This document shows positions 5,481 to 26,931 of a DNA stretch of 36,755 nt, piece by piece. The notes beneath the pieces are model-generated. The model was not told where the DNA came from and did not search any database. It worked only from the letters and a program-made list of their open reading frames with translations. Source of the stretch: Alphaproteobacteria bacterium (lineage in GTDB: Bacteria; Pseudomonadota; Alphaproteobacteria; Micropepsales; Micropepsaceae); contig JANLXP010000380.1 of assembly GCA_031365165.1 (NCBI GenBank), forward strand, positions 1 to 36,755, given 5' to 3'. The position numbers and the translations under genes are program-made. Numbering within the stretch: position 1 is the stretch's first letter; every line of letters starts with the position of its first letter.

Positions 5481-5695
5481 CTTTCGAATTGCCGGGCAAA
5501 GCTCTCAACGGGCCGGCCCAGCCAAGCGACCATCTGCAGCATGCCGTCGACTTCGAGCCGCCCGCCGCGTTCCGTGCGCGCGATCGTCGCGGCACTCACG
5601 CCGATCTCGTTCGCCACTTGCCGCCACGACAGCGAGCGCGCCTTCCGTTGCGCATCCAGCGCCTGGTAAAGCGCGCGCGTGTCGAAGCGGAGCAT
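5477..5695 (-). CDS. XRE-family helix-turn-helix transcriptional regulator
   Basis: 72 aa with LSWRQVANEIGVSAATIARTERG HTH. The ATG at 5695 lies 2 nt after the upstream VOC stop. Confidence 0.75.
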   Translation of the reverse strand: MLRFDTRALYQALDAQRKARSLSWRQVANEIGVSAATIARTERGGRLEVDGMLQMVAWLGRPVESFARQFES

Positions 5696-5697
5696 CG

Positions 5698-6084
5698 TTA
5701 TTTCTTCGGTACCATGCAGAAGGCAACGAACTTGTTGCCGTCGAGGTCGCGGAAATACCCGCCATAGAAACCGCTGTTGGCTTCCGCGGGACGGAACCCG
5801 GGCGCACCTTCGCATTTGCCGCCAAGCTCGGTCGCCTTCGCGTACACCTTTTTGACGTCGTCCGGTGACCCGACGGCAAGCGCCACCATGGTCCCGTTGC
5901 CGACGGTCGCGAGCTTTCCGTCATGCGGTTTGATGACCATGACTTGCGGACCCTTACCACTCGTCCAGCCGGTCATGTGGTCGTTGTCCCAGCCGCGCTT
6001 TGCGCCGATCTCGCCAAGCACGCTGTCATAGAATTTGCGCGCCCGTTCGAGGTCGTTCGTACCAACGGTCATGTAGCCGATCAT
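5698..6084 (-). CDS. VOC/glyoxalase-family protein
   Basis: 128 aa. Begins MIGYMTVGTNDLERARKFY and ends GYFRDLDGNKF, typical of the glyoxalase/bleomycin-resistance fold. AGGAGA SD before ATG 6084. Confidence 0.8.
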   Translation of the reverse strand: MIGYMTVGTNDLERARKFYDSVLGEIGAKRGWDNDHMTGWTSGKGPQVMVIKPHDGKLATVGNGTMVALAVGSPDDVKKVYAKATELGGKCEGAPGFRPAEANSGFYGGYFRDLDGNKFVAFCMVPKK

Positions 6085-6156
6085 GCTTGTCTCCTGCTCA
6101 ATGTCTGAAGCGGGGGTTTTAGCTGCCCGGAGCAGGCAAAGCAAAGAAGCCGTCGG

Positions 6157-6579
6157 CTAGGCAACGGTCTCGCGGGTTGGCAGCGGTACTGTGGTCGGAT
6201 CCGTAGGGTGAGCACCGCTGCGATCGCCGATCGCCCACTGCACGCCAACAAAGGCACCCTTCACGCGCGGCAGAAGTACCAGCGCCAATACGACAATGCT
6301 CGGCAAGACGATCGCGAACAGCCACGCCAACGGCCAGGTGAAAACCGCATCGCTTAGCAGCAGCGGTCCGAGCACCAAATGGCCGACGATCAGAATCGTG
6401 AAATAGGCAGGCCCGTCATCCGCACGATACTGCGAGAGATCATGCCCGCACGAGGCGCATGTCGGCGCGACCTTCAGGTACGCACGAAACAGCTCCCCTT
6501 CGCCGCACTGTGGGCAACGACCGAAGAGCCCGCGCTTGAGACCTTCCCAAACAGAGCGCTGTTGAAACGTTGCGGTCAC
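6157..6579 (-). CDS. DUF983 zinc-ribbon membrane protein
   Basis: CPQCGEGELF...CASCG zinc ribbon followed by two TM segments. GTG start preceded by GGGAG. Confidence 0.8.
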   Translation of the reverse strand: MTATFQQRSVWEGLKRGLFGRCPQCGEGELFRAYLKVAPTCASCGHDLSQYRADDGPAYFTILIVGHLVLGPLLLSDAVFTWPLAWLFAIVLPSIVVLALVLLPRVKGAFVGVQWAIGDRSGAHPTDPTTVPLPTRETVA

Positions 6580-6612
6580 AAAAAACTCCCGGCGCTAACA
6601 ACCGGGATGTAA

Positions 6613-6637
6613 GCACGTGCATATGAAATGCACGTGC
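6613..6637. repeat. two copies of the self-complementary octamer GCACGTGC separated by 9 nt
   Basis: Copies at 6613-6620 and 6630-6637, immediately 3' of the GGDEF-EAL stop (6639). Confidence 0.6.
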
Positions 6638-6638
6638 G

Positions 6639-8396
6639 TCAGTTCGTCCAGGGTTCGCGAATCTCGGGCTTGGAGAAGTGGAAGCCCTGCAGATAGTCCA
6701 CGCCGAACGCGCGCAGAATGTCGGCCTCGCGCGCATCCGAAACCCATTCGGCGACGGTCTCAAGATTGAAGTTCTTGGCCAGGTCGACGAGCGTGCGCAC
6801 GAAAATCTGATTGTCGCGGCTGTCCGCCATGCCTTTGACGAACGACCCGTCGATCTTGACCATATCGACCTTCAGCGACTGCAGATTGCGGAACGACGTA
6901 TAACCGGCGCCGAAATCGTCGATCGCGACCTTCGCGCCGAGGGCGCGCACGCGGCTGACGAAGCGCATGCTTTCCTCGATATCGATCAGCGCCGCCGTCT
7001 CCGTCAGCTCGACGATAAGCCGCGGCACCACATCGGTGTGATTTTCGAGATAGGCGACGAACGCTTCCAACGTCGGCCGGTCGCTCGCTGTCATCCCCGA
7101 AACATTGAGCGAGAGGCGCGCACCGCGATACTTCTTCAATGACGCAATCGTTAGCTCAAGAACTCGTCGATCAAGCCGGCGCACAAGGCCCAACTGCTCG
7201 GCAACCGGAATGAAATCGCCCGCCGCAATAACCTGACCCTCGGGCCGCGAAATGCGCACAAGGCATTCGTGCGCCACCGCTTCGCTGGTCTTGGCGTCGA
7301 CGATGGACTGATAGGCCAGAACGACGCGATTCTCGGACAACGCCGTAATGATCTGATCGCCGATCGCAACTGTGCGCTTGCGCAACGACTCGCGCTGCGG
7401 CGAATGCGAATAGGCGGCATAGTTGTCGCGCCCGTGCGCCTTCGCGCGATCGAGTGCTTCTTCGGCACGTGCCATGGCTTCCTGGCTGTTGCGTGCGTCC
7501 TGCGGCAACGCGACGATACCAACGGACACGCTGACGCTGACCGCGCCGCCGCGTGTCGGCACCACGCGCGAGCGGACGGCTTCGCGCAACACTTCGGTAC
7601 GCTCGGCCATCTCGCCAGCCGTACACCGCTCCAAGATCAAGCCGAACTTGTTGCCGGCTGTCCGGCCAACGACGCCGGCCGTTCCGATGATCTCTGCGAA
7701 TCTGCGCCCGACCGCGACGATAACCTCGTCGGCGACGTCGAACCCGTATGTTTCGTTGATGACCGCAAGATCGTCGATCGCAACCACGCAATACGCAGCA
7801 GGCTCACGCTGCGCCGCAGCCTTCAATTCCAGATGCTGGGCCAACCGCTCGCGCAAGCGAATGCGGTTCAAGTGCCCCGTCATTTCGTCGTAGCTCGCGG
7901 CCCACTCAAGATGCGCCTCGCGCAACTTGCGTTCCGTGATGTTGCGCACGGTGCCGACGACGCGTTCCGTCTGGCCGTTTTGGCCGACGAGGCACACGCC
8001 GCAATCCTCAACCCAAACCGGCCCCGCACCCGACTTCATCATGTACTCGAGGCGGAACGTGCCGCCGTCGCCCGGCGGGGTCAGCGCCAACCGGAGCCGC
8101 GCTTCAACGGCATCTTGATCGATCAATAGGTGGAACGTCGCATCGCTCTCATAGTGCTCAAGCTCGCCGACGCCCAGATGCGCGCTCGGATCGCCGCTCC
8201 ACACGATGTTTCCGTCGCTGGGCGTCCAGTCGTAAACGACGTCGCCACTTGCGGCGAGCGCGAGACGCAGCCGTTCTTCCTCACCAAGCTCGGCGAGCTT
8301 TTGGACGGAATTTGCCTGACGACGAGTGAACACGACCGTATTGCCCCCAACACACGCGAGCCGCTCTTCGCAGACGGGGGTTCCCCCTTCTCGCAC
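6639..8396 (-). CDS. PAS - degenerate GGDEF - EAL c-di-GMP signalling protein
   Basis: The GGDEF position reads AGNKF (nt 7644-7658). The EAL position reads ECL (7260-7268). ELTE, DDFGAGYTS, KIDGSF and QGF EAL-domain motifs are present. GTG start at 8396 is uncertain. Confidence 0.85.
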   Translation of the reverse strand: MREGGTPVCEERLACVGGNTVVFTRRQANSVQKLAELGEEERLRLALAASGDVVYDWTPSDGNIVWSGDPSAHLGVGELEHYESDATFHLLIDQDAVEARLRLALTPPGDGGTFRLEYMMKSGAGPVWVEDCGVCLVGQNGQTERVVGTVRNITERKLREAHLEWAASYDEMTGHLNRIRLRERLAQHLELKAAAQREPAAYCVVAIDDLAVINETYGFDVADEVIVAVGRRFAEIIGTAGVVGRTAGNKFGLILERCTAGEMAERTEVLREAVRSRVVPTRGGAVSVSVSVGIVALPQDARNSQEAMARAEEALDRAKAHGRDNYAAYSHSPQRESLRKRTVAIGDQIITALSENRVVLAYQSIVDAKTSEAVAHECLVRISRPEGQVIAAGDFIPVAEQLGLVRRLDRRVLELTIASLKKYRGARLSLNVSGMTASDRPTLEAFVAYLENHTDVVPRLIVELTETAALIDIEESMRFVSRVRALGAKVAIDDFGAGYTSFRNLQSLKVDMVKIDGSFVKGMADSRDNQIFVRTLVDLAKNFNLETVAEWVSDAREADILRAFGVDYLQGFHFSKPEIREPWTN

Positions 8397-8681: not shown

Positions 8682-9011
8682 TTATTTTGGAAGCACGAGC
8701 ATCTTGAGCTCGACGATCATCCGCTCGATCCGCGTCAACCTTTCGTTCATTTCCTCAAGCCGCCGGTCGATGGCCGCAGGTTCCGAAGGCGTCGGCGTCG
8801 AAACCCCTGCCCGGCTCGCCACTTCCGCAACCGCAGTCTTAAGATATGCGGCCAGCGCCTGCACTTCCGCACCGCGCAGCTCGCGCTGATCCTTCCAGAG
8901 TTCGGCCACTTGCCCCTGCGAGAGCTTCAACAATTGCGCAACGTCGTCCCGCGTCGCTCCCAGCTCTTTCAACCGCGCGTCGAACCAAGCCTGATCGAAA
9001 AACAATGCCAT
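8682..9011 (-). CDS. hypothetical protein, HTH-like N-terminus plus C-terminal coiled coil
   Basis: ORF follows the crotonase gene directly: the ATG at 9011 lies 2 nt past the crotonase stop, and the alternative GTG at 9017 overlaps that stop. No family recognised. Confidence 0.55.
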   Translation of the reverse strand: MALFFDQAWFDARLKELGATRDDVAQLLKLSQGQVAELWKDQRELRGAEVQALAAYLKTAVAEVASRAGVSTPTPSEPAAIDRRLEEMNERLTRIERMIVELKMLVLPK

Positions 9012-9013
9012 TG

Positions 9014-9817
9014 TCACCGCCCCCTAAATTGCGGTGCGCGCTTCTCAAGGAAGCTCGCGACGCCTTCGCGGTGATCCTCGGTCTGGAACAACCGGCCCAG
9101 CGTGCCCGACACCCAGCTCCCGAACTCCCGCACATCGCGAACCGACGCCCGGCGCAGACCTTCCTTCATGTAGCGCAAGGCCAGTGGCGGGTTGGACGCT
9201 ATCCGCTCGGCAAGTGCAAATGCCGAGGGCAACAAATCGTCGTGCTGCACCACACGCGACACGAGCCCGATCCGCTCTGCTTCACGGGCAGGAATAATGT
9301 CGCCGGTGAAGAGCAGTTCTGCGGCCTTCGCGGGCCCCACCAGCCGGGGCAGGATCATCATGCCTCCAACGTCGGTGACGAGCCCGCGCTTGATGAAAAT
9401 CTCCCCGAACTGCGCGCGCTCGGACGCGATGCGAATATCCGCAAACAACGCGAGTTCCATACCCCAGCCGACCGCCGTTCCGTTCACCGCCGCAACGATC
9501 GGCCGGTCGCACTCCAAAACAGCTTCGGCCGCAGGCGTCAGCCTCGGCCGCACGGATGTCAGACGCGTCTGGCTTTGTTCGCGCTGCGGCCCGGTCATCA
9601 TCTGCTTGACGTCTTCGCCGGAGCAGAACGCGGGATCCGCGCCCGTCAGCACCACCGCGCGCACTTCACCGTCGCTTTGGATGTGTCGGAACACAGCCTC
9701 CAGATCGGCATAAGCACGCGCGTTAAGTGCGTTGCGAACCTCGGGCCGGTTCAGCGTGACGACGCCAACGTGCCCCTTCAATTCGTAAGTCAAATGCACG
9801 AAGTCGGGCGGGTTCAT
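9014..9817 (-). CDS. enoyl-CoA hydratase/isomerase (crotonase) family protein
   Basis: VVTLNRPEVRNALN, AFCSGEDV and AAVNGTAVGWGMELAL oxyanion-hole motifs. ATG 9817 chosen because upstream ORF sequence overlaps the divergent gene region. Confidence 0.85.
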   Translation of the reverse strand: MNPPDFVHLTYELKGHVGVVTLNRPEVRNALNARAYADLEAVFRHIQSDGEVRAVVLTGADPAFCSGEDVKQMMTGPQREQSQTRLTSVRPRLTPAAEAVLECDRPIVAAVNGTAVGWGMELALFADIRIASERAQFGEIFIKRGLVTDVGGMMILPRLVGPAKAAELLFTGDIIPAREAERIGLVSRVVQHDDLLPSAFALAERIASNPPLALRYMKEGLRRASVRDVREFGSWVSGTLGRLFQTEDHREGVASFLEKRAPQFRGR

Positions 9818-11804: not shown

Positions 11805-12125
11805 CTATTTTGTGGCAGAGGGAGGTTCGCTCCCGTTTTCGCGACCCGCCGCCGCCTTTTCAGCAAATATGAGGTAGAGATTGCGCGCGTAAACAATCAG
11901 GCCAAGAGCTTGGCCCGAGATGAAGACGGGATCTTTCTTGTATAACGCGTAGATCAGCAGCACGATCCCGCCGCCGACGCTGAAGTACCAGAACATCACC
12001 GGAACCACGCTGCGCCCCGCCTTCTCGCTCTCCCACCACTGCACAACAAAGCGTGACATGAAGAGCGCCTGACCGGCAAAGCCGACAAGCAGCCACACGT
12101 GTTCCCAGGTGAACCAGTCGGTCAT
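11805..12125 (-). CDS. lipid-A-disaccharide synthase N-terminal (LAB_N) domain small membrane protein
   Basis: 106 aa, 3 TM, with FMSRFVVQWWESEK and KDPVFISGQ motifs typical of LAB_N. The ATG abuts the GT2 stop (TAAATG). Confidence 0.8.
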   Translation of the reverse strand: MTDWFTWEHVWLLVGFAGQALFMSRFVVQWWESEKAGRSVVPVMFWYFSVGGGIVLLIYALYKKDPVFISGQALGLIVYARNLYLIFAEKAAAGRENGSEPPSATK

Positions 12126-12863
12126 TTATATCTCATCCACCCGTTCGGGATTGCGCGACCTGCGCCGGAGCCAACGCACACCGCGCAGGTCCGACAGCGA
12201 CACAAACAACCGGTCCAGCGTGCCGTACTTCGAAACCCCGTGCGAACGCGAACGATGGTTCACGTCGACGTGGGCAATCCGATAACCCTCGCGCAGCATC
12301 AAAGCCGGCATGAAGCGGTGGATATGATCGAAATAGGGCAGCCGTAAAAACGCTTCGCGCGAAAAGAGCTTAAGCCCACAGCCGGTATCGCGCGTGTTGT
12401 CGTTGAGCAGCCACTGCCTGACGCCGTTGCCGACGCGCGAGGCCATGCGCTTCATGAAATTGTCCTGGCGCTTGCGCCGTTGCCCGGCGACCAGGCCGAG
12501 CGGTGGATCGCCCGCCAAAGATGAGCGCCATGTCGCAAGCAGGTTTGGAATGTCCGCCGGATCGTTCTGCCCGTCGCCGTCTAGCGTCGCGATCAGCGCG
12601 CCGCGCGCGGCCAACACCCCGGACCGCACAGCCCGGCTTTGGCCCGAGTTCTTGACATGGGAGAGCACACGAAGTTCCGGCGTTTGCGCTTTCGCCGCTT
12701 TGAGCGAGGCAACCGTCGCATCCCGGCTGGCGTCGTCGACGAAAATGACCTCGAACGCGACCTTCCCCCGAAGTGCAGCCGTGATCTCGTTGAGCAGCGG
12801 AACCGCGTTCTCAACCTCGTTCATCACCGGCACGACAACCGAAAGCTCAGGCGTTGCCGTCAC
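12126..12863 (-). CDS. family-2 glycosyltransferase, polyprenyl-phosphate sugar synthase type (ArnC/DPM1-like)
   Basis: LSVVVPVMNE, FVDDASRDAT and LDGDGQNDP (DxD) motifs. GTG start at 12863. Confidence 0.88.
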   Translation of the reverse strand: MTATPELSVVVPVMNEVENAVPLLNEITAALRGKVAFEVIFVDDASRDATVASLKAAKAQTPELRVLSHVKNSGQSRAVRSGVLAARGALIATLDGDGQNDPADIPNLLATWRSSLAGDPPLGLVAGQRRKRQDNFMKRMASRVGNGVRQWLLNDNTRDTGCGLKLFSREAFLRLPYFDHIHRFMPALMLREGYRIAHVDVNHRSRSHGVSKYGTLDRLFVSLSDLRGVRWLRRRSRNPERVDEI

Positions 12864-13091
12864 GCGCGCCCCCGAGCTTCAATGATCGCCGACCAGTCGA
12901 ACACGTTCCGCTGACTCCTTAATAGGTGGCGGGCTTATACAAGCGCCGGGGCTTAAACCGCTAGGCCCTATGCCTCAAGCCCTCGACGAATAGCCATGAT
13001 GACAGGTATGACCTGCATCGTTACCTTTGGTCGCAGGCGGCGCGCATTCCATGATTGCGCCGTGCGTCTTTTCAGTGGTTAACCGTGACCC

Positions 13092-14795
13092 ATGCCAACA
13101 CGCCGCTCCGCCGCTTCCTATGATTCGTCGAGCCCCTGGTCGCTCGCCCTCGCACACCCGCGCATCGTGCTGGTCGTGCTGTGCCTTTTGATGTTCGTGC
13201 CGGGGATCGCAACGATCCCCCCGCTCGACCGTGACGAAGCGCGCTTCACGCAAGCCACGAAGCAGATGCTTGAAACCGGCGACTTCATCGAAATCCGCTT
13301 CCAGGACGACCCGCGCAACAAGAAGCCGATCGGCATCTATTGGATGCAGTCGATCACCGCAGGCTGGCTCTCAAGCCCGCCGCACAACTCCGTTTGGGTC
13401 TATCGCATCCCGTCGGTGTTGGGTGGCATCTTTGCCGTCCTGTTCGCATTTGGCCTTGGACGAAGACTGTTCGACGAAGAAACGGCGATGATAGGGGCAG
13501 GGCTCTTAGCCTCCTCGATGCTCCTTATAGGTGAGGCCCACATCGCCAAGACGGATGCGGTGTTGGTCGCCTGCGTGACCGCCGCCCAACTTGTCGTCGC
13601 GCACTTCTTCATAGCCGCCCGACAAGGATCGCCTCAACCCACCGTCCGAAACTCGGCCTTACTCGGGTTAGCACTCGGGATAGGCATCCTCGTCAAAGGG
13701 CCGATGATTCTGTTCTTCGTCGGCCTGACCGTGATCGCGCTATCGATTTGGGAGCGCCGCTGGGGCTGGGTCTCGACCATGCGGCCCATGTTCGCGCTCG
13801 GCATCATCATCTTGATCAACGTGCCTTGGCTCGTCGCCATCGGGCTCGTGACCAAAGGCGCCTACTTCCAAGAGGCGATCGGCCAAGACTTTTTGGGCAA
13901 AGTTGTCGGCGGACAAGAATCGCATTGGGGTCCGCCGGGCTACTACCTCGTCTCGCTTCTTATCGGTTTCTGGCCCGGCTGGTTGTTCCTCGCGCCTGGC
14001 GTTGTCTATGCGATCGCCCGCGTGCGAGAAGGCTCCGTCCGCTTCCTGCTCGCATGGATCGTCCCCGCTTGGGTGATCCTTGAACTCGCACCGACGAAGC
14101 TTCCGCATTATCCACTGCCGCTCTATCCGGCAATCGCATTGCTCTGCGGCGCAGCCGTCATGGCAGGTGTTCGTGAGAGCCGTAGCTTCCTCGACAACAC
14201 CCCGGTGAAACTCGGCGCTGTCGCATGGCTCATGGTCACGATCGGCCTGATCGGCGGCGCGCTCTTCTACGTACCGGGTCAATACGGCACCGGCGGCGGC
14301 ATCGTGCTTACACTGCTGGCGATACCAGTTGTCGGCGCCGCGGGTATCGCGGTGCTGTTCCTTCTGCGCGGCGAAGGTGAGAATGCGACGGCCGCAACAG
14401 TCGCGACCGGCGCCCTGTTCGCGGCGATCCTCCTCGCCGCGGTATTGCCGCGCCTCGATCAGCTCATGCTGAGCCAACGGGCGGCCGACCTCATCGCCCG
14501 CTCCGGCGCGCAGGCGCAGAACACGACCGTCGCAGGCTTCAACGAGCCCAGCATGGTCTTCCAAGTCGGAACAAAAGTGACGCTCTCGCCCACCGGCGCC
14601 GAAGCGGCGGACTTCATCACCAAGCATGCCGACGCCCGCGCCCTCATCGAGGAACGCTTGGATCCCGAGTTCCAACAGACGCTGCGCAAGCTGAACGTCG
14701 CAGCTGAGGCCCTCGGCAACGTGAAAGGCTTGAACTACTCGAGAGGCGATCACCTTTCGCTCACGCTCTACCGGCTGCGCAAAACCGGACCGTGA
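13092..14795 (+). CDS. ArnT/PMT-like polyprenyl-phosphate-sugar-dependent glycosyltransferase (GT39/GT83 type), copy 1
   Basis: 567 aa, many TM segments, N-terminal loop PPLDRDEARFTQATKQM...KPIGIYW. Confidence 0.85.
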   Translation: MPTRRSAASYDSSSPWSLALAHPRIVLVVLCLLMFVPGIATIPPLDRDEARFTQATKQMLETGDFIEIRFQDDPRNKKPIGIYWMQSITAGWLSSPPHNSVWVYRIPSVLGGIFAVLFAFGLGRRLFDEETAMIGAGLLASSMLLIGEAHIAKTDAVLVACVTAAQLVVAHFFIAARQGSPQPTVRNSALLGLALGIGILVKGPMILFFVGLTVIALSIWERRWGWVSTMRPMFALGIIILINVPWLVAIGLVTKGAYFQEAIGQDFLGKVVGGQESHWGPPGYYLVSLLIGFWPGWLFLAPGVVYAIARVREGSVRFLLAWIVPAWVILELAPTKLPHYPLPLYPAIALLCGAAVMAGVRESRSFLDNTPVKLGAVAWLMVTIGLIGGALFYVPGQYGTGGGIVLTLLAIPVVGAAGIAVLFLLRGEGENATAATVATGALFAAILLAAVLPRLDQLMLSQRAADLIARSGAQAQNTTVAGFNEPSMVFQVGTKVTLSPTGAEAADFITKHADARALIEERLDPEFQQTLRKLNVAAEALGNVKGLNYSRGDHLSLTLYRLRKTGP

Positions 14796-16318
14796 CCGCA
14801 CTGACGGAGCGGCTGACCAAACTTCCGCCGCTGGCTTGGCTCGCGGCGCTGGTCGCCGCAGCCACGCTCTTCCGCCTGATCGTCCTTAGCGTGACGCCTC
14901 TGAACTTGGGGCCGGACGAAGCGCAATACTGGTCGTGGAGCCTGACACCGGCCTTCGGTTACTTCTCGAAGCCGCCGATGATCGCCTGGATCATCGGTGC
15001 AACGACAAGCGTCTGCGGCGACGGTGAAGCCTGCATCCGCGTCGGCGCGCCGCTCATGCACGCGATCACCGCGTTCTTGGTCTTCTTCGCAGGCAAAGCG
15101 CTCTACGACGATCGCGTGGGGCTCTGGTCCGGTGTCGCCTACATACTAATGCCCGGCACGAGCTTCTCATCGCTCCTCATCACGACAGACGTGCCGCTCT
15201 TGATGTTCTGGACGCTGGCGCTCTGGGCTTTGGCTGAGTTGCGCAGAGAAGCGACCGTGAAGTGGGCGATCGTCTTCGGAGCGGCGATCGGGCTGGGCCT
15301 GCTCTCGAAATACGCGATGCTCTATTTCGTGCTGGGCTTGGGTCTGGCGCTGTTGCCGACGAAGAACGGACGTTCGTTGCTTCTGTCGCGCACCGGCGCG
15401 ATCGTGGCCCTGGCAGCATTGACAGTCTTTTCACCGAACATCATCTGGAACGCGCTGCACAGCTTCGCGACCGTCGGTCACACGGCGGCGAACGCGAACT
15501 GGAGCGTCGCGAAGCTCTTCAACGTCTCCAACACGCTGAGCTTCATCGCTGCTCAGTTCGGTATCGCAGGCCCGATCGCCGGCGGACTCGTCGCGTGGGG
15601 CTTGATCCGCAACTGGCGTGACCCGCGCTACGACAGCGCCGACACACTCTTACTCGCGCTCACGCTGCCGATCTTCGCGATCGTCACGCTGCAAGCGTTC
15701 ATCTCGCGCGCCAACGCGAACTGGGCTGCACCGGCATTCGTTGCTCTGACGATACTGTTCACGGCCTGGGCGATGCGCCGAAGCAACACTTTAGCGGTGA
15801 GAGCGAACGCGTGTTTGAACGCGGCGATCGCCATCTTGCTCGGCGTGACTGCGATGTCGCCCGCATTCGTCGCGGCAATCGGCCAAGAAAATTCCGTTAA
15901 GCGCTTGCGCGGATGGGAAGAAGCAGGCGCAACGATCGTCAGCGCAGCGAACTCGGGCCCGTTCGACGCAATCATGAGCGACGATCGCGAGGACATGGCC
16001 TCGCTCTTCTATTACACGCGTGACAGAAACGAAAAAAAGCTTCCGCTGCGCATGTGGCCGAGCGAAACGGCGCGAAACGAGTACGAAGTGTCGCACCGTT
16101 TGCGTTCAAACGAGACTGCGAACGTACTTTTCGTCACGCGAAGAAGTGATGTGAGCGTCATCACCAACGCATTCGCATCGTCGACGCGCATCGGCACGCT
16201 TGAAACGCGACTCGATTCGAAACGAAAGCGCATTTTTTTCCTCTTCGCGCTCAAAGGACCGGTCGATTCGACTCTTTTTCCAAAATATTTTGATCGTCCG
16301 TCTACGGACAATCGCTGA
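14792..16318 (+). CDS. ArnT/PMT-like glycosyltransferase, copy 2
   Basis: GTG 14792 overlaps the previous stop (GTGA). Contains LGPDEAQYWSWS...FSKPPMIAW, is multi-TM, and has a soluble C-terminal domain. Confidence 0.85.
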   Translation: MTALTERLTKLPPLAWLAALVAAATLFRLIVLSVTPLNLGPDEAQYWSWSLTPAFGYFSKPPMIAWIIGATTSVCGDGEACIRVGAPLMHAITAFLVFFAGKALYDDRVGLWSGVAYILMPGTSFSSLLITTDVPLLMFWTLALWALAELRREATVKWAIVFGAAIGLGLLSKYAMLYFVLGLGLALLPTKNGRSLLLSRTGAIVALAALTVFSPNIIWNALHSFATVGHTAANANWSVAKLFNVSNTLSFIAAQFGIAGPIAGGLVAWGLIRNWRDPRYDSADTLLLALTLPIFAIVTLQAFISRANANWAAPAFVALTILFTAWAMRRSNTLAVRANACLNAAIAILLGVTAMSPAFVAAIGQENSVKRLRGWEEAGATIVSAANSGPFDAIMSDDREDMASLFYYTRDRNEKKLPLRMWPSETARNEYEVSHRLRSNETANVLFVTRRSDVSVITNAFASSTRIGTLETRLDSKRKRIFFLFALKGPVDSTLFPKYFDRPSTDNR

Positions 16319-16466
16319 TTCGACTCAAATCATCGTTTCGCGCGCGTCAAACGCATGCGCACTGTTCGCGACAGCATCGCAAATGATTAATGCAAAGCGT
16401 CGCCAGTCGATCGCACTCGCGTGGAATAAAAATAGTATCGGAGGCGAGTGACATTTCGCTTGGTCG

Positions 16467-16539
16467 TGCGATTACGCGCATTCGCCTAGAGAAGAATTGC
16501 GCGATTAGATTCTCGTTGTGTGTGTCAATATGCGATTAC
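16467..16539. promoter_or_regulatory. three spaced copies of a TGCGATTAC-like box in the low-GC spacer upstream of kamA
   Basis: TGCGATTAC at 16467-16475, CGCGATTAG at 16500-16508 and TGCGATTAC at 16531-16539, with spacings of 33 and 31 nt. Confidence 0.3.
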
Positions 16540-16728
16540 TTCACAAACACGCACCTCGAATACACACTCGATCACACGAATGACCATTGCTAATCCATTC
16601 TTTACTCACCCGATCTATTTGACGATGAGCGAATCGTGCTGCATGATTCGAAATGGTTGGGGAAAGCGCTGGCTGCGCGCGGACTTCGGGGAAAGCAGTC
16701 GACCAACTAAGGGGCGTCAGAGCTGCCT

Positions 16729-18102
16729 ATGACAGTGCATACCTTCGTAAAGGGCGCCAACACGGCGGCGCACTTAAGGCCTCCGACGAAGCGCAAGGTG
16801 ATAGAACGAAGTCCGCCCGCCGGCGCTGACGTCGGCGTTCAGACTTCTCTCTTCTTCCCGCCTCCCGCCTCACCCGCCCTTCCTCAATCCGATTCCGCGA
16901 CGCCAACACGTAAAGCGAACCGTTTCCCGGTCAGCGCTCAGGCTCGCGAGTTCTACAAACGCAATTTCCCGGGCACGACACCCGACGATTGGAACGACTG
17001 GCGCTGGCAAGCGCGCAGCCGCATCCGCACGCTTGAGCAGCTTGAGCGGATGTTCGACCTGTCGAAAGACGAAAGATCCGCGGCTTTGCGCCATAAAGGC
17101 TCGCTGCCCGTCGGCATCACACCTTATTACGCAAGCTTGATGGCCCATGCCGATGCGTCGGAGCCGCTCCGCCGTACGCACATCATGGTCAACGATGAAT
17201 ACGTGCGCCTGCCGGGTGAAGAAGACGATCCGCTGGGCGAAGACCACGACACGGTCGCCCCGGGACTCGTGCATCGCTACCCTGATCGCGTTTTGTTCCT
17301 GACGACCGGCTTCTGCTCGACCTATTGCCGCTATTGCACGCGCTCAAGAATGGTCGGAAATCCGGGCGGCGAGTACAACTTCTCGACCTCGCAGTGGGAA
17401 AAGGCGCTCCAATACCTGGAAACGCACACTGAGGTGCGCGACGTCCTTCTTTCCGGCGGTGATCCGCTGTCGATCGGCGACGACAAGCTCGATTGGCTGC
17501 TCACGCGCCTGCGCAAGATCAAACACATCGAGTTCATTCGCATCGGATCCAAGATCCCGGCCGTGCTGCCCATGCGCATCACCCGTGATCTCGTGAAGAT
17601 GCTCAGGAAGCATCATCCCCTGTGGATGAGCGTCCACTTCACGCATCCGACCGAGATCACGCCCGAAACGCGCGAAGCCGCGGCCCGTTTGGCCGATGCC
17701 GGCATACCGCTCGGCTCGCAAACGGTTCTGCTCAAAGACATCAATGACGACGTAACGGTGATGCGCGACCTGATGCATGGTCTGCTCACCATGCGCATCA
17801 AGCCGTATTACCTCTATCAGTGCGACCCGATTAAGGGCTCCGGCCACTTCCGGACGCCTGTGCACAAAGGGCTTGAGATCATCCAATCGCTTCGCGGTCA
17901 CACGACGGGCTATGCGTGCCCGATGTTCGTGGTCGATGCGCCTGGCGGTGGCGGGAAAATCCTGCTGGCGCCGGACGCAGTCGCGGGCCGGAACGGCGAC
18001 GACCTGCTGCTCAGGAACTTCGAAGGCAAAATCTTCCGCTATCCCGACCCAGGCGGCACGCTTGGGCGTAGCAAAGTCGCGCGGGCAGCCGCCGCTGAAT
18101 AA
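16729..18102 (+). CDS. kamA: L-lysine 2,3-aminomutase (radical SAM, PLP)
   Basis: DWNDWRWQ, HRYPDRVLFL and CSTYCRYC (CxxxCxxC) motifs. YQCD and FVVDAPGGGGK have the two Asp residues 37 aa apart and the PLP Lys. Start uncertain (ATG 16729 gives a ~70-aa N-terminal extension; GTG 16798 is an alternative). Confidence 0.9.
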   Translation: MTVHTFVKGANTAAHLRPPTKRKVIERSPPAGADVGVQTSLFFPPPASPALPQSDSATPTRKANRFPVSAQAREFYKRNFPGTTPDDWNDWRWQARSRIRTLEQLERMFDLSKDERSAALRHKGSLPVGITPYYASLMAHADASEPLRRTHIMVNDEYVRLPGEEDDPLGEDHDTVAPGLVHRYPDRVLFLTTGFCSTYCRYCTRSRMVGNPGGEYNFSTSQWEKALQYLETHTEVRDVLLSGGDPLSIGDDKLDWLLTRLRKIKHIEFIRIGSKIPAVLPMRITRDLVKMLRKHHPLWMSVHFTHPTEITPETREAAARLADAGIPLGSQTVLLKDINDDVTVMRDLMHGLLTMRIKPYYLYQCDPIKGSGHFRTPVHKGLEIIQSLRGHTTGYACPMFVVDAPGGGGKILLAPDAVAGRNGDDLLLRNFEGKIFRYPDPGGTLGRSKVARAAAAE

Positions 18103-18146
18103 GCGGCGGATCCCCGAACGATCGATGGCGAGTTAGCCGAGGCCGG

Positions 18147-19133
18147 ATGAACGACGCGCCGCATATCTTGATTATTGTCCCGGAGCTCAAAGAGCTGGAG
18201 CCCGACGACAACCTTGCGACCATTTCGACCGCACGCGAACTCGCCAAGCACTACGACCGCTTGGGCTATTCAAACGCGATCCGCCATTTCGAATACTTGC
18301 CCCAGACGTTCAAAACCGTCGTCGACGAAGAACAGCCCGACTGCGTCTTCAACTTGGTCGAATCGGTCTCAGGCACCAGCCGCCTGATCCATGTCCCGCC
18401 GATCTATCTCGAAGAATTGCGCATCCCCTATACGGGCTGCCCCGCGCACGCGATCGAACTGTCGAACGACAAGGTCTTGGCCAAGCACATTCTTCAGCTC
18501 CTGAAGGTGCCCACCCCCCGCTGGGGAACGCCAAAGACGATGCCCGGCGGCGAGGGCGGCACCTGGATCGTCAAGGCCCAGCACGAACACGCGTCCTTCG
18601 GCCTAACCCAAGCAAACGTCGTCCAAGGCACGACCGCCGCGATCGCGCGCGCCCATGAGCTCGCGAAAGAGCACAAGATCGAATGGATGATCGAAGAGTT
18701 CGTGGACGGCCGCGAATTCAACGTCTCGATGGTCGAAACACCCGAAGGCCCCCGCGTCCTGCCGTCGGCCGAGATCGTGTTTCAGAACTATGGCACCGAC
18801 CTGCACAAGATCATCGACTACCGCGCGAAGTGGGACGACCAGAGCTTCGAATACCAAAACACGGTCCGCCGCGCCGATTTCTCCCCGGCCGACCGCAGGC
18901 TCCTCAAGGAGCTTGAGGACATCAGCCTCAAGGTTTGGGAAGGCTTCGATCTGCGCGGCTGGGCCCGCGTGGACTTCCGCATCGATGCCGCAAGCAACCC
19001 GTGGGTCATCGACGTCAACGCGAACCCCGACTTGTCGTTGGACGCGGGCTTCATGGCCGCCGCCGGCCGCGCACAAATCGCCCCGCACGAGGCGATCCGC
19101 ATGATCACCGACGCCGCACTGTTGGCGGGATGA
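18147..19133 (+). CDS. ATP-grasp ligase, D-Ala-D-Ala-ligase-like
   Basis: GAGG SD lies 5 nt upstream. Contains SNDKVLAKHIL, WIVKAQHEHAS, EEFVDGREFNV and ARVDFRID...IDVNANP ATP-grasp motifs. Confidence 0.85.
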   Translation: MNDAPHILIIVPELKELEPDDNLATISTARELAKHYDRLGYSNAIRHFEYLPQTFKTVVDEEQPDCVFNLVESVSGTSRLIHVPPIYLEELRIPYTGCPAHAIELSNDKVLAKHILQLLKVPTPRWGTPKTMPGGEGGTWIVKAQHEHASFGLTQANVVQGTTAAIARAHELAKEHKIEWMIEEFVDGREFNVSMVETPEGPRVLPSAEIVFQNYGTDLHKIIDYRAKWDDQSFEYQNTVRRADFSPADRRLLKELEDISLKVWEGFDLRGWARVDFRIDAASNPWVIDVNANPDLSLDAGFMAAAGRAQIAPHEAIRMITDAALLAG

Positions 19134-19612
19134 CGGCGCCGAAGTTCCGTTCGACGCCGCAACCGGACGACCCCGAAGCCGTCCGCGAACTTGTAACCGC
19201 GACCGGCGTCTTCTCGGGCACCGAAGTTGGCTGGGCCGTCGAAATCGTCGAAACCGCGCTCGCACGTGGGCAATCCGCCGGTTACCACTTCCTATTCGCC
19301 GATGGATCGAGCCGCCTCGAAGGCTTCACATGCTTCGGCCCGATCGACGGCACCGACAACCGCTTCGACCTTTATTGGATCGCCGTCTCGCCAATGGCAC
19401 AAGGTAAGGGCCTTGGCCGCGACCTCCTCGGTGAAACGGTCACCGCCGCCCGCGCCCTCGACGCCACCCACATGTTCATCGACACGTCGACCCGCAACGA
19501 CTACGCCGCCGCCCGCAAACTCTACGAAGCGCTCGGCTTCAACCACATGGGAACGCTGGTCGACTTCTATAGCGATGGCGACGGCAAGGCCCTGTTCGGA
19601 CGCAAGCTCTAG
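19130..19612 (+). CDS. GNAT-family N-acetyltransferase
   Basis: ATG 19130 overlaps the ATP-grasp stop (ATGA). Acetyl-CoA motif IAVSPMAQGKGLGRDLL. 160 aa. Confidence 0.85.
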   Translation: MTAPKFRSTPQPDDPEAVRELVTATGVFSGTEVGWAVEIVETALARGQSAGYHFLFADGSSRLEGFTCFGPIDGTDNRFDLYWIAVSPMAQGKGLGRDLLGETVTAARALDATHMFIDTSTRNDYAAARKLYEALGFNHMGTLVDFYSDGDGKALFGRKL

Positions 19613-20553
19613 ATCGTCTCCAGAGCCTCTTCAGCACGCCGCAACCCTAGTTGCCGCTCGCGCCACACGATGAAGAGCCCAGACGAGATCACGATCACGG
19701 CCCCCACATAGACAGCCGCCGCCGGCAACTCGCTGAAGAACAACCACCCCAGCAGGATCGCCCAAATCATCGCCGCATAGTCGAAATTGGCGAGCGTCGA
19801 GGCCTCCGCGAACCGGTACGAATTCGTCATCAGCAACTGCCCGGCCCCACCTAAGATTCCAAGCGTGACGAGCAGCAAGAATTCGCTGCCCGAAGGGGTC
19901 GTCCACGCAAAGGGCAAAGTGCACGCGCTGACGAGCGTGCAAGCCAGCTGAAAATAGAACGCGATCACGAGCGCCGGCTCGCTGCCCGACATCAAGCGGA
20001 TAAAGATCATCGTGAAGGCGACCAAGAACGCGTTCGCAAAGGCGAGCATCACGCCGGTCGACGCACCCGCCTCTGCAAAGCCCTGACCGAGATGCGGCGA
20101 GACCATAATCAACACGCCGACGAACCCGGCGCCGACCGCACTCCACCGGTAAAGCCGCACGGTCTCGCCCAGAATGAAAGCGGCCAACACCACGACGATC
20201 AGCGGCGACGCAAAACTGATTGCCGTCACGTCGGCAATCGGCAGGTACTTCAGCGACGAAAAATAGGTGAACATGGCAAGCACACCGCTCGTCGCCCGCC
20301 TGGCATGCGACCACGGCACCTTTGTCGCCAAGTCGCTCATGCGCAGACCCGACACCAGCATCACGACGATGATCGGCACGAACGCGAACAGCGAGCGGAA
20401 GAACACGACCTGGCCCACCGGAAACGTGTCGCCGAACCCGCGCGCGATGACCGCCATGAACATAAAGACGAGCGTCGCCGCGACCTTGAGTGCAATGCCG
20501 AGAAGCGGATGTGACGACGTCTTAAGATCGACGGCCGTGCTCTTCACAGCCAC
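19609..20553 (-). CDS. DMT-superfamily (EamA-like) transporter
   Basis: About 10 TM segments arranged as two EamA-like halves. Start is GTG 20553 or GTG 20547 (the latter gives a GTGA overlap with the corA stop). Confidence 0.85.
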   Translation of the reverse strand: MAVKSTAVDLKTSSHPLLGIALKVAATLVFMFMAVIARGFGDTFPVGQVVFFRSLFAFVPIIVVMLVSGLRMSDLATKVPWSHARRATSGVLAMFTYFSSLKYLPIADVTAISFASPLIVVVLAAFILGETVRLYRWSAVGAGFVGVLIMVSPHLGQGFAEAGASTGVMLAFANAFLVAFTMIFIRLMSGSEPALVIAFYFQLACTLVSACTLPFAWTTPSGSEFLLLVTLGILGGAGQLLMTNSYRFAEASTLANFDYAAMIWAILLGWLFFSELPAAAVYVGAVIVISSGLFIVWRERQLGLRRAEEALETI

Positions 20554-23786: not shown

Positions 23787-25721
23787 CTAGCGCTTCGCGT
23801 TCGCCACCAAATCCTGCACGACAGCCGGATCTGCGAGCGTCGTCACATCGCCCAGATTGGATGTGTCGCCTTCCGCGATCTTCCTGAGGATGCGCCGCAT
23901 GATTTTGCCCGACCGCGTCTTCGGCAGACCGGGCGCCCACTGGATGACATCCGGCTTCGCAATCGCGCCGATCTCCTTGCCAACCCATTGGATGAGCTCT
24001 TTGCGCAACTCTTCCGTCGGCGCCTCGCCCGAGACCAAAGTCACATAGGCGTAGATACCCTGCCCTTTGATGTCATGCGGATAGCCCACGACTGCGGCTT
24101 CAGCCACCTTCTTGTGAGCGACCAACGCCGACTCGACCTCGGCGGTCCCAAGCCGGTGACCCGACACATTGATCACGTCGTCGACGCGGCCCGTGATCCA
24201 ATAGTACCCATCCTTGTCCCGCCGGCAGCCGTCGCCGGTGAAGTACTTGCCCGGATAGGTCTTGAAGTACGTCTCGACGAACCGCTCGTGATCGCCATAG
24301 ACGGTGCGCATCTGCCCCGGCCAAGAATCCGCCAGAACCAAATTGCCCGTCGTCTCGCCCTCAAGCACCTTGCCCTCGGCATCGACGACCTGCGGCACGA
24401 CACCGAAGAACGGCCGCGTAGCTGATCCCGGCTTCAAATCGGTGGCGCCCGGTAGCGGGGTAATCAAGATGCCGCCGGTCTCGGTCTGCCACCACGTGTC
24501 GACGATCGGACAGCGGCTGTCGCCGACGACGCGATGGTACCAAAGCCAAGCCTCGGGATTGATCGGCTCACCCACGGAGCCGAGCAGGCGCAACGACGCG
24601 CGGCTCGTCTTCTTCACTGGCCCCTCGCCATCGCGCATCAACGCGCGGATCGCCGTCGGCGCCGTGTAGAAGATGTTGACCTTGTGCTTGTCGATGACCT
24701 CCCAGAACCGCGAGACGGTGGGATAGTTCGGGACGCCTTCGAACATCAGCGTCGTGGCCCCGTTCGAAAGCGGGCCATAGACGATGTAGCTGTGCCCCGT
24801 CACCCAACCCACGTCCGCGGTACACCAGTAGATGTCGCCATCGTGGTAATCGAACACGTATTGATGCGTCATCGACGCGAAGACCAGATAGCCGCCCGAC
24901 GTGTGCAAGACGCCCTTGGGCTTACCGGTCGAGCCCGACGTGTAGAGAATGAACATCGGATCTTCCGCGTTCATCTCGGCGGGCGGACAGTCGGCTGACA
25001 CCTTCCCCGCTTCGTCGTGGTACCAAACATCGCGGCCCGCCTGCATCGCGACTTTGCCGCCCGTGCGCTTTACGACGACCACGCGCTTTACGTCCGGACA
25101 ATGCGCCAAAGCGGCGTCGGTGTTCTGCTTCAGCGGCACCGCCTTACCACCGCGTAAGCCTTCGTCTGCCGTGATCACGACCGTCGACGCGCAATCGACG
25201 ATCCGCCCCGCCAAACTGTCCGGGGAAAACCCGCCGAACACGACCGAATGCACTGCCCCGATCCGCGTGCAAGCGAGCATCGCGTAAGCGGCTTCAGGGA
25301 TCATCGGCAGATAGATCGTAACCCGATCGCCCTTCTTCACCCCGTTCGCGGTCAACACATTCGCAAACCGGCAAACCTCGGCGTGCAATTGGCGATAGGT
25401 GATGTGCTTGGAATCCTTGGGGTCGTCGCCTTCCCAAATGATCGCCGTCTGATCGCCGCGCTTCGCCAAATGCCGGTCGATGCAATTCGCCGAAACGTTC
25501 AGCGCTCCGTCCTCGTACCAGCGAATGAACAAGTTCTTCGCGTCGTACGAAACGTTCTTCACTTTCGTGTACGGCTTGATCCAATCGACCCGCTTGCCCT
25601 GCTCGCGCCAAAACGTCACCGGATCCGCGACCGAGGCCTTGTAGAGATCGAGATACTTCCCGTTGTCGACAAACGCGCGTTTCGCCCACTCGGCCGTGAC
25701 GGGAATAACCTGGTCGGACAT
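23787..25721 (-). CDS. acs: acetyl-CoA synthetase
   Basis: 644 aa. Contains [11 protein letters not shown] (AMP-binding), [15 protein letters not shown], and [20 protein letters not shown]...SGKIMRR. AGGAG SD before ATG 25721. Confidence 0.93.
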
Positions 25722-25752
25722 CAAAAGCGCTCCTCGTTTTGGCGGGCGAACC

Positions 25753-26931
25753 CTACGTCGATCCTTCGATTTCGCGCAACACCTCGGCCGTGTGCTCGCC
25801 GACGGTCGGCGGATCGAGCCGGATCGCGCAGGGGCTCTTCGAGAATTTGAGCGCCGGGCGCATCGTACGGTACCGGCCCTCGCTCTTGATCTCGCGCTCT
25901 TCGAAGAACCCGACATCCTTGAAATGCGGGTCGTCGAACAAGGTCGAGGTCTCGTTCGCCCGCATCGCAGGAACATGATGCTCGGCGCACAGCGCCATCC
26001 ATTCTTCCGTCGTGTGCGTCGCCGCCGCCTCGCGCATCATGTCGTAATAGACATTGACCCGCGCCTTGCCGTCGGGCGCCGCAAGGAAGAGTTCGCTGTT
26101 GTAGGCGTCGGGAATCCCACCCAATTCCAAAAACTTCACAGACCCTTCGCGGCTTGCCGGTAGCACGACGAGATAGCCGTCCTTCGTCTTATAAGGCTTG
26201 CGATGCGGCGTGATCGTCGTTGCGTGCCCGAACTTGCCCGGCAGATCGAGATAGGTCTTGCCCCAGATGTGTTCGGCCTGAATGAACCCGGTGAACGCCT
26301 CGAGCATCGGCACCTCGACGTACTGCCCCTCGCCCGTTTTCTCCCGGTGATGCAGCGCAGCCAACGTTGCGATCACCGCGAACAACCCGCTCGTCTTGTC
26401 CGCAATGATCGACGGAAACGGGCGAAGCTCCTTGTTGCCATCGTAGAGCGGCAGCAAATCGCACGCGCCCGACGCCGCTTGGATTAAGTCGTCGAACGCC
26501 TGCCGCCCGTTATATTCGCCGCCCGTGCCATAGCCGATCGCCTCGACATAAATGATGTTGGGCTTGAGGCTAGCGACCTCGTCGTAACCAAAGCCCAGCC
26601 GCCGGATCGCCTCCGGCCGCATGTTGTGAATGAAGACATCGCCGGTGCGCACCAGCTCGCGCAACTGCGCCTTGCCTTCGTCCGTCTTGAGATCCACGGC
26701 CACCGACCGCTTGTTGCGATTGAAAGCCACGAACATCGGCCCCATCTTGTCCGACTTCGGCGCCTTACCTTGATTGCGCTGCCGGTCGCCCGAAGGCTCC
26801 TCGACCTTGATCACGTCAGCACCAAGGTCGCCCAACGTCATCGTCGCATAAGGCCCAAGCACGAATTGCGTCAGGTCGATCACGCGGATCCCGGCCAACG
26901 GCCCTGGCTTCGCGTCGGTCTGTGCGGTCAT
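25753..26931 (-). CDS. family III CoA-transferase (CaiB/BaiF type)
   Basis: [34 protein letters not shown]-terminal signature. Confidence 0.88.

Follow-up and report, generated by a model that had tools for sequence, protein, structure and literature searches.

A lysine 2,3-aminomutase, Ddl-fold ligase and GNAT operon of a Micropepsaceae bacterium as the predicted minimal form of a widespread beta-lysine cassette

A gene for a lysine 2,3-aminomutase followed on the same strand by genes for an ATP-grasp ligase and a small GNAT raises the question of what a bacterium builds from beta-lysine. This operon lies in a 36,755-nt stretch of DNA (hereafter, the window; positions 1 to 36,755 of contig JANLXP010000380.1, assembly GCA_031365165.1) from an alphaproteobacterium of the Micropepsaceae. 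An earlier reading made from the letters alone (the sequence-only reading) had proposed that the trio was a candidate new beta-lysine pathway with no characterised counterpart. Our analysis suggested that the three genes are the minimal form of a widespread cassette predicted to make a small N-acetylated beta-lysine amide or peptide, a reading to which we assigned a probability of about 0.55. The cassette itself is real, conserved, uncharacterised and beta-lysine-using, and its product is probably a beta-lysine-derived compound. The three genes are as follows.

16729-18102, + strand: gene 1, kamA-type lysine 2,3-aminomutase (radical S-adenosylmethionine (SAM) and pyridoxal 5'-phosphate (PLP) enzyme), 457 aa
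18147-19133, + strand: gene 2, Ddl-fold ATP-grasp amide ligase (ligase B), 328 aa
19130-19612, + strand: gene 3, small GNAT acyl-CoA N-acyltransferase, 160 aa

The layout described in the sequence-only reading, three same-strand genes with a spaced first junction and an overlapping second one, was borne out at each point by the table of open reading frames (ORFs) and the sequence. The TAA of gene 1 (18100-18102) was followed by a 44-nt gap (18103-18146) with a GAGG at 18139-18142, five bases 5' of the gene 2 ATG (18147), and genes 2 and 3 shared an ATGA start/stop overlap at 19130-19133. Judged by this overlap, the GNAT is translationally coupled to the ligase. Because homologs of gene 3 are 157-160 aa long, the ATG at 19130 is its likely start, within a longest ORF that opens at a TTG at 18935. 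A site scan found no plus-strand terminator-like sites between the three genes. Compared with relatives L005 and L007, all three genes gave dN/dS values of 0.05-0.25 (with dS near saturation) and, on these ratios, purifying selection acts on each of them.

The neighbourhood census that the sequence-only reading had proposed was run, and the order kamA-ligase-GNAT held across phyla. A scan of one genome per species returned at least 582 stretches with a relative of gene 2, and the closest 80 were taken with their flanks; loci with enough flank were counted as testable, and genes within 3 kb (for kamA, on the same strand) as adjacent. By these definitions, kamA was found upstream of ligase B in 56 of 58 testable loci, and a GNAT gene downstream of it in 59 of 63. 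In the window, both genes are immediate neighbours of ligase B and all three lie on one strand. Between kamA and ligase B, a tblastn census detected a second, paralogous Ddl-like ligase (ligase A; 22-34% identity to gene 2) in 47 of 58 loci. Fusions joined the same partners: ligase B was fused to the GNAT in many lineages (e.g., P0093, P0106, P0119, P0255, P0277 and P0302), with the ligase first and the GNAT second, and ligase A was fused to ligase B in others (e.g., P0241, P0245 and P0248). A GNAT2-HDAC-GNAT protein, in which a gene 3-type GNAT forms the C-terminal domain, occurred in 20 of the 80 loci and in several phyla. In its full form, the cassette holds kamA, a pair of paralogous Ddl-like ligase genes and a GNAT gene, to which an acetylpolyamine amidohydrolase (APAH)-like deacetylase and a second GNAT are often added. 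Synteny over many phyla and the ligase-GNAT fusions showed the trio to be a real, functionally linked unit.

Ligase A was absent from the window and from L002, L004-L011 and L081. The Bacteroidales locus L047 carries two ligase genes although the tblastn census scored it as lacking ligase A, so the loci without it are restricted to the window clade and two others. Since its clade lacks ligase A, the window carries a trimmed cassette; the trio is not a self-contained novelty of this genome and represents a reduced form of a larger and widespread set of genes. According to the records' own labels, which supply every taxon name in the census, the loci belong to Desulfobacterota (several orders), Myxococcales, Acidobacteria, Planctomycetota, KSB1, Krumholzibacteria, Bacteroidales, Fibrobacteraceae, Lentisphaerae/Kiritimatiellae, Chloroflexia, Cycloclasticus, Kiloniellales and a tight alphaproteobacterial clade mostly labelled Micropepsaceae. 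The window falls in this Micropepsaceae-like clade, with kamA identities of 76-98%, and its three-gene operon was also seen on a 5.2-Mb metagenome-assembly contig.

Three loci (L001, L004 and L008) bear the label "uncultured Flavobacteriaceae". They match both the window and Micropepsaceae-labelled metagenome-assembled genomes (MAGs) in complete gene order and at 85-98% KamA identity, and judged by these likenesses their labels look wrong.

Gene 1 was aligned with the Clostridium subterminale lysine 2,3-aminomutase (LAM; PDB 2A5H) over 362 residues (HMMER, E 6.6e-123). The alignment confirmed the radical-SAM motif, the GGGGK lysine and the two Asp residues 37 positions apart that had been picked out from the sequence, as listed here with gene 1 residues first.

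C196, C200 and C203: C125, C129 and C132 of 2A5H, the CxxxCxxC cluster motif
R205: R134 of 2A5H
D366: D293 of 2A5H
D403, 37 residues after D366: D330 of 2A5H
K410: K337 of 2A5H, the PLP lysine in GGGGK

We take it from the published 2A5H structure that Asp293 and Asp330 bind the epsilon-ammonium of lysine and that Arg134 binds its carboxylate. All seven positions were invariant in the 52 of 52 full-length kamA genes adjoining gene 2 homologs, and the lysine-specific signature was thus kept both in gene 1 and in its cluster orthologs. By this active-site signature, gene 1 is a lysine 2,3-aminomutase. Among family models, gene 1 passed that of the KamA family (TIGR00238, 337.7 bits against a cut-off of 199.2). 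Its best specific model was the AblA equivalog (TIGR03820), which it matched at 458.7 bits, below the cut-off of 525.4; the KamA of Desulfosarcina reached 487.3 bits against the same model. The EpmB model was failed (TIGR03821, 246.6 bits, cut-off 369.3), and the glutamate and arginine aminomutase models scored lower than AblA and far under their own cut-offs. The sequence-only reading had also taken the product to be almost certainly (3S)-beta-lysine on the strength of the Asp pair. That argument did not carry over, as the pair marks lysine as the substrate and says nothing on the enantiomer; (3S)-beta-lysine is a plausible product because the KamA and AblA models fit much better than EpmB.

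Outside this core, gene 1 has an N-terminal extension of ~80 residues and a C-terminus ~48 residues short of that of the Clostridium enzyme, ending ~16 residues past the last aligned position (368 of 416), and the LAM_C domain was matched over positions 1-58 of 127 only. The inter-subunit Zn site of the Clostridium enzyme consists of Cys268, Cys375, Cys377 and Cys380. Since the gene 1 position aligned to C268 is an Asp and the protein ends early, this site is absent.

Outside the alphaproteobacterial clade (L013-L080), the cluster KamA proteins have an N-terminal extension that varies and carries a short conserved [DE][DE]EPP[GSD] motif within the first 40-60 residues (e.g., in the kamA of L036, Desulfosarcina variabilis Montpellier, 5627-6940), and KamA proteins of the alphaproteobacterial clade carry MTVHTFVKGANTAAHLR in its place. 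This acidic-proline motif may be a docking site for partner enzymes.

The ATP-grasp motifs reported for gene 2 were reflected in matches to Pfam Dala_Dala_lig_C (66.6 bits) and ATP-grasp_3. From an alignment of 46 sequences, AlphaFold2 gave a model of high confidence (pLDDT 92.7, pTM 0.90), and its top Foldseek matches in the PDB were Ddl throughout, with a TM of ~0.76 and ~20% identity (8EVX: E 3.5e-22, TM 0.76). The ATP/Mg2+ residues K143, E183, R274, D276 and N291 were invariant in the family alignment, and D/E289 was also counted among these conserved residues. Gene 2 missed the Ddl models (NF002378, 94.4 bits against 243; TIGR01205, 81.3 against 245.65), and the cut-off of every NCBIfam Ddl/Van model lay far above its score. 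In a profile alignment with E. coli DdlB (1IOV), residues of the D-Ala site were replaced (Y216 by W229, G276 by D295, H280 by D299 and S281 by A300), with D299 invariant across the gene 2 family. The N-terminal domain, which holds E15 in DdlB, does not align with Ddl, and the omega-loop region of the family bears an insertion with invariant K228, W229, T239 and R241. The failed cut-offs and the replaced D-Ala-site residues agreed with the earlier view that gene 2 is not an ordinary Ddl. These features point to an amide ligase that works through an acyl-phosphate and takes small, possibly basic, substrates that are not D-Ala. The RimK-like ligation of beta-lysine to a protein, which the sequence-only reading had offered as an alternative, is disfavoured because the fold is of the Ddl type, which acts on small molecules.

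A profile of gene 2 gave 2,314 matches at E <= 1e-30 among 1.84 billion representative proteins. Homologs are publicly labelled "D-alanine-D-alanine ligase", "ATP-grasp domain-containing protein" or "hypothetical protein", the last being the RefSeq name of the Desulfacinum ortholog. A search of plasmids for annotated relatives returned only ATP-grasp ligases of ~31% identity, encoded beside a CapA-family gene on symbiosis plasmids of rhizobia (7 records; e.g., L082, Sinorhizobium fredii NGR234 pNGR234a, record 207279-208289). These were set aside as a different and also uncharacterised Ddl-like system.

Gene 3 carries the QGKGLG acetyl-CoA loop noted earlier and matched the Pfam families Acetyltransf_1, Acetyltransf_7 and Acetyltransf_10. 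Its sole strong relative in the PDB was an ortholog, 2R7H (E 6.4e-32), a structural-genomics entry titled "putative D-alanine N-acetyltransferase" and without demonstrated function. Its best NCBIfam match was RimI, at 47.8 bits against a cut-off of 86.4, and no NCBIfam AblB model matched it at E <= 0.001. Matches to streptothricin/nourseothricin acetyltransferases were weak (NF000487, E 2.6e-5, 23.8 bits against 420; 5C82, E 3.5e-4). A search for homologs of the GNAT returned close relatives only, with no new architectures. The sequence-only reading had likened the pairing of GNAT and ATP-grasp chemistry to Ngg; the functional likeness stood, and family membership fell, as gene 3 scored 19.5 bits against the Ngg model TIGR03103, whose cut-off is 569.

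Genes that accompany the cassette in other lineages added to this picture. The HDAC-family domain of the GNAT2-HDAC-GNAT protein was nearest to acetylpolyamine amidohydrolases (6PHR, E 4e-72; 3Q9B, E 4e-59), and entries of the HDAH type were clearly more distant (~1e-36). A LysA-like decarboxylase gene was found 3' of the cassette in 10 Syntrophales-type loci, a small DMT_6 transporter gene between ligase B and the GNAT in 4 loci, and an AI-2E transporter gene in or beside the cassette at L022. Sigma-54 response regulators were encoded near the cassette in 6 loci of different groups. In 8 loci of other phyla, the gene that separates kamA from ligase A encodes a Cys-rich PF03692 protein, candidate roles of which are Fe-S electron transfer to KamA and lysine methylation.

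Single loci departed from the usual layout. The most divergent alphaproteobacterial locus, L011, has a PF03692 protein (CxxCxxCC, YkgJ/FliB-like; 8998-9627) in the GNAT position. A Chloroflexia MAG (L052, 5075-9901) carries genes for aspartokinase, aspartate-semialdehyde dehydrogenase and a ligase B homolog, then one for a SET-GNAT fusion, with no kamA; this layout suggests that a related route acts on lysine, or on some other amine of the aspartate family, and includes N-methylation. In a Cycloclasticus MAG (L017, 5075-6898), ~1.8 kb of short broken ORFs lie 3' of ligase B, where other loci have the deacetylase-GNAT gene; either gene decay or faulty assembly may account for this region.

Under the reading favoured here, the pathway would begin with the conversion of L-lysine to beta-lysine by the KamA-type enzyme, whose residue signature was seen and whose activity is predicted from it. 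The GNAT would then acetylate an aliphatic amine of beta-lysine or of its conjugate, most likely the epsilon-amine, a site proposed because the deacetylase fused to the GNAT elsewhere is of the acetylpolyamine-amidohydrolase type. Ligase B would use ATP to couple beta-lysine, or its N-acetylated form, through a single amide bond to another small amino or carboxylic acid, and in most lineages ligase A would add a further bond. Where present, the APAH-like domain would strip the acetyl group, which would then serve as a transient protecting or regulating group. Because the window clade lacks ligase A and no deacetylase is encoded in the window, its product would be a shorter conjugate that is probably still acetylated, and such a conjugate would fit a compatible-solute-like or exported metabolite. 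The lysine-supply genes and small transporters found elsewhere favour a bulk small molecule over protein modification on a catalytic scale. For the wider proposition, that a pathway found in more than 10 phyla makes undescribed beta-lysine amides or peptides and that the window holds its minimal three-gene form under a conserved operator and leader, we put the odds at about even. Within that proposition, the product might be a compatible solute of a new class or a cation resembling polyamines, and its acetylation and deacetylation would be a protecting or regulatory step built into the pathway.

Several observations weigh against this scheme. The one pointer to the proposed acetylation site is the kind of deacetylase that other lineages carry. 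The links to lysine-supply and transporter genes amount to few independent observations, since they come mostly from one or a few related lineages. GNAT, HDAC-family, SET and PF03692 domains are also typical of protein-lysine modification. L052, L070 and L079 hold the ligase-GNAT module without kamA in the available upstream flank (7.9 kb, 7.7 kb and only 2.2 kb, respectively), and the module may therefore also act on another amine. The census is biased towards near relatives, as it covers the 80 closest of at least 582 stretches.

Other explanations were weighed against the same evidence. The two paralogous ATP-grasp ligases, fused in one polypeptide in several lineages, could build a cationic beta-lysine oligomer or polymer, comparable to the epsilon-linked beta-lysine chain of streptothricin or to polymerisation by ATP-grasp enzymes of the cyanophycin or RimK type, with the GNAT capping or detoxifying amines and the APAH-like domain uncapping them. 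The invariant acidic D299 at a Ddl substrate-site position would suit a basic substrate, and the weak GNAT matches were to streptothricin/nourseothricin acetyltransferases, which acetylate a beta-lysine amine. However, that match fell far under its cut-off (23.8 against 420 bits), no polymer-type membrane or export machinery was conserved, and Ddl-fold enzymes are, to our knowledge, single-turnover dipeptide ligases and not polymerases; we consider a polymer unlikely. Slightly less likely again is an ablAB-like route to acetyl-beta-lysine, in which the GNAT is a non-orthologous replacement of AblB and the ligase is accessory, for example in recycling or amidation. Such a route would agree with the AblA model giving KamA its highest score (458.7 bits; 487.3 for Desulfosarcina), with the GNAT always accompanying kamA, and with a deacetylase of a type that suits an N-acetylated alkylamine. 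Nevertheless, KamA remained under the equivalog cut-off of 525.4 and the GNAT matched no AblB model at E <= 0.001. The ligase is also hard to cast as accessory, since no partner accompanies the GNAT more constantly and many lineages have the two in one polypeptide.

Modification of a protein appeared quite improbable. The ATP-grasp enzyme would attach free beta-lysine to a side chain of some protein, in place of beta-lysylation of the EpmA type, and GNAT, HDAC and SET domains would write and erase lysine marks. The GNAT, HDAC, SET (L052) and PF03692/FliB-like (8 loci and L011) families do include protein-lysine modifiers, and the best NCBIfam match of the GNAT was RimI (47.8 against 86.4 bits). 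Yet the ligase has the fold of Ddl and not that of RimK or TTL, the deacetylase is nearest to small-molecule acetylpolyamine amidohydrolases, the lysine-supply genes point to bulk flux, and the EpmB model was failed (246.6 against 369.3 bits). A tblastn search with E. coli elongation factor P (EF-P) found no efp in the window or the 80 loci, and a link to EF-P was rejected on this result. The neighbourhood clusters contained neither genes resembling aminoacyl-tRNA synthetases (aaRS) nor any other conserved candidate target protein. Lysine catabolism or fermentation through acetylated beta-lysine, as proposed for the yodT-kamA operon of Bacillus subtilis, is very unlikely. It would account for kamA occurring with an acetyltransferase and, elsewhere, a deacetylase, an echo of kamA/yodP/yodQ; however, kamDE, kdd, kce, aminotransferase and CoA-transferase genes were not conserved nearby, ATP-consuming ligases would be unexpected in such a route, and the linked genes are instead lysine-biosynthetic. 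We gave almost no credence to gene 2 being the cell's D-Ala-D-Ala ligase, or a spare copy of it, beside kamA by chance. Homologs do bear the public label "D-alanine-D-alanine ligase" and the nearest solved structures are all Ddl, but gene 2 scored 94.4 bits against a cut-off of 243, its N-terminal domain is unaligned, and Y216, G276 and S281 are replaced by W229, D295 and A300. Synteny with kamA and the GNAT across phyla, the GNAT fusions and the RefSeq naming of the Desulfacinum ortholog also speak against it, and a housekeeping Ddl was rejected on the failed cut-offs and changed substrate residues.

Few fates of free beta-lysine are known: it serves in lysine fermentation, in the modification of EF-P, and as a building block of an archaeal-type osmolyte and of a few antibiotics. 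The cassette shares features with several known systems. As in AblA/AblB, which make N-epsilon-acetyl-beta-lysine as an osmolyte in methanogens and some bacteria, a KamA-type aminomutase is followed by a GNAT that likely acetylates an aliphatic amine of beta-lysine. Unlike that pair, the aminomutase here is under the AblA cut-off and the GNAT is outside the AblB family, one or two Ddl-fold ligases (often fused to the GNAT) lie between kamA and the GNAT, and an APAH-like deacetylase is common. Ngg/AsnO, which make N-acetylglutaminylglutamine amide, likewise bring together a GNAT and an ATP-grasp ligase, in some cases within a single polypeptide, to give an N-acetylated peptide-type solute. The domain order is opposite, however (GNAT then ATP-grasp in Ngg; ligase then GNAT here), the ATP-grasp clade here is that of Ddl, and the cassette has no AsnO partner and has its substrate supplied by an aminomutase. 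With Ddl/Van ligases, gene 2 shares the three-domain ATP-grasp fold, the ATP/Mg2+ residues and the presumed acyl-phosphate mechanism, but its identity to them is ~20% and its gene context is kamA and a GNAT rather than mur/fts. EpmB/EpmA, which beta-lysylate EF-P, also feed beta-lysine from a lysine 2,3-aminomutase to an ATP-dependent ligase; the ligase here is an ATP-grasp enzyme and not aaRS-like, and it has GNAT and APAH-type partners. The kamA-yodP-yodQ genes of B. subtilis pair kamA with an N-acetyltransferase and, like many cassette lineages, with a deacetylase, whereas the deacetylase here is of the HDAC/APAH type and not M20, ATP-grasp ligases are present, and aminotransferase and CoA-transferase genes are not part of the cassette. 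Functionally, the predicted activities make the cassette like ablAB (aminomutase and GNAT) crossed with Ngg (GNAT and ATP-grasp), and it is a member of neither.

No description of kamA combined with a Ddl-like ligase and a GNAT was found in full-text searches of the literature, where an earlier, purely computational mention is possible; a Pelobacter genome paper mentioned ablAB alone. The claim that the trio has no characterised counterpart held in that no described pathway or product was found there. Members of the ligase family occur in sulfate reducers, syntrophs, planctomycetes, and freshwater and peat alphaproteobacteria, and a conserved cassette joining beta-lysine to a Ddl-fold ligase suggests that bacteria of anaerobic sediment and peat have a metabolite that has so far gone unrecognised. 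Present annotation of these genes is wrong or empty ("D-alanine-D-alanine ligase", "RimI-like", "hypothetical"). Solving the pathway would give a function to the orphan structure 2R7H and supply new biocatalysts that form amides of beta-amino acids; it could also account for osmotic or nitrogen physiology among these groups.

The operon of the window is preceded by conserved sequence and followed by a convergent transporter gene, with the following features.

16319-16728, + strand: conserved upstream control region of the operon, 410 nt, with blocks nearly invariant in 10 alphaproteobacterial loci
16467-16475 and 16531-16539: two copies of a TGCGATTAC box
16523-16543: invariant 21-mer block TGTCAATATGCGATTACTTCA, which encloses the second TGCGATTAC copy and is unique in the window
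16619-16647: promoter-like TTGACG-17-CATGAT, from a promoter scan
16630-16650: palindrome CGAATCGTGC-T-GCATGATTCG, which overlaps the -10 element
16659-16667 and 16688-16696: two copies of a GGGGAAAGC leader repeat
19609-20553, - strand: EamA/DMT-family transporter gene (Pfam EamA, 83.1 bits)

Between the upstream blocks, the sequence diverges across the same 10 loci. A search of the upstream region against Rfam gave nothing at the gathering threshold or at E <= 1, and RNAalifold on the 10 leaders proposed 13 pairs with one compensatory change only; with so little covariation, an RNA structure is unproven. A riboswitch upstream of kamA was therefore considered unsupported. The blocks are more likely protein-binding sites than a riboswitch, with a candidate operator, activator sites and a conserved leader.

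The TAG of gene 3 (19610-19612) lies in a 4-nt overlap with the stop of the EamA/DMT gene. The tail-to-tail arrangement described in the sequence-only reading is thus present; as evidence for a link it is weak when taken alone, since synteny of the EamA/DMT gene is limited to the alphaproteobacterial clade. It is possible that this gene encodes an exporter or importer for the pathway, and the association is a weak one.

Upstream of the operon, a hairpin at 16292-16313 divides it from a glycolipid/lipid A-type modification set (11805-16318) that is syntenic within the clade only. This set comprises genes for a LAB_N protein and a GT2 glycosyltransferase on the - strand and for two ArnT/PMT_2-like glycosyltransferases on the + strand. 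Further downstream, on the - strand, the acetyl-CoA synthetase ORF (23787-25976, 729 aa) opens with ~85 Arg/Ser-rich residues that lie outside the ACAS_N match, which begins at residue 108; the true start of this gene is probably at the internal MSDQVIPV.

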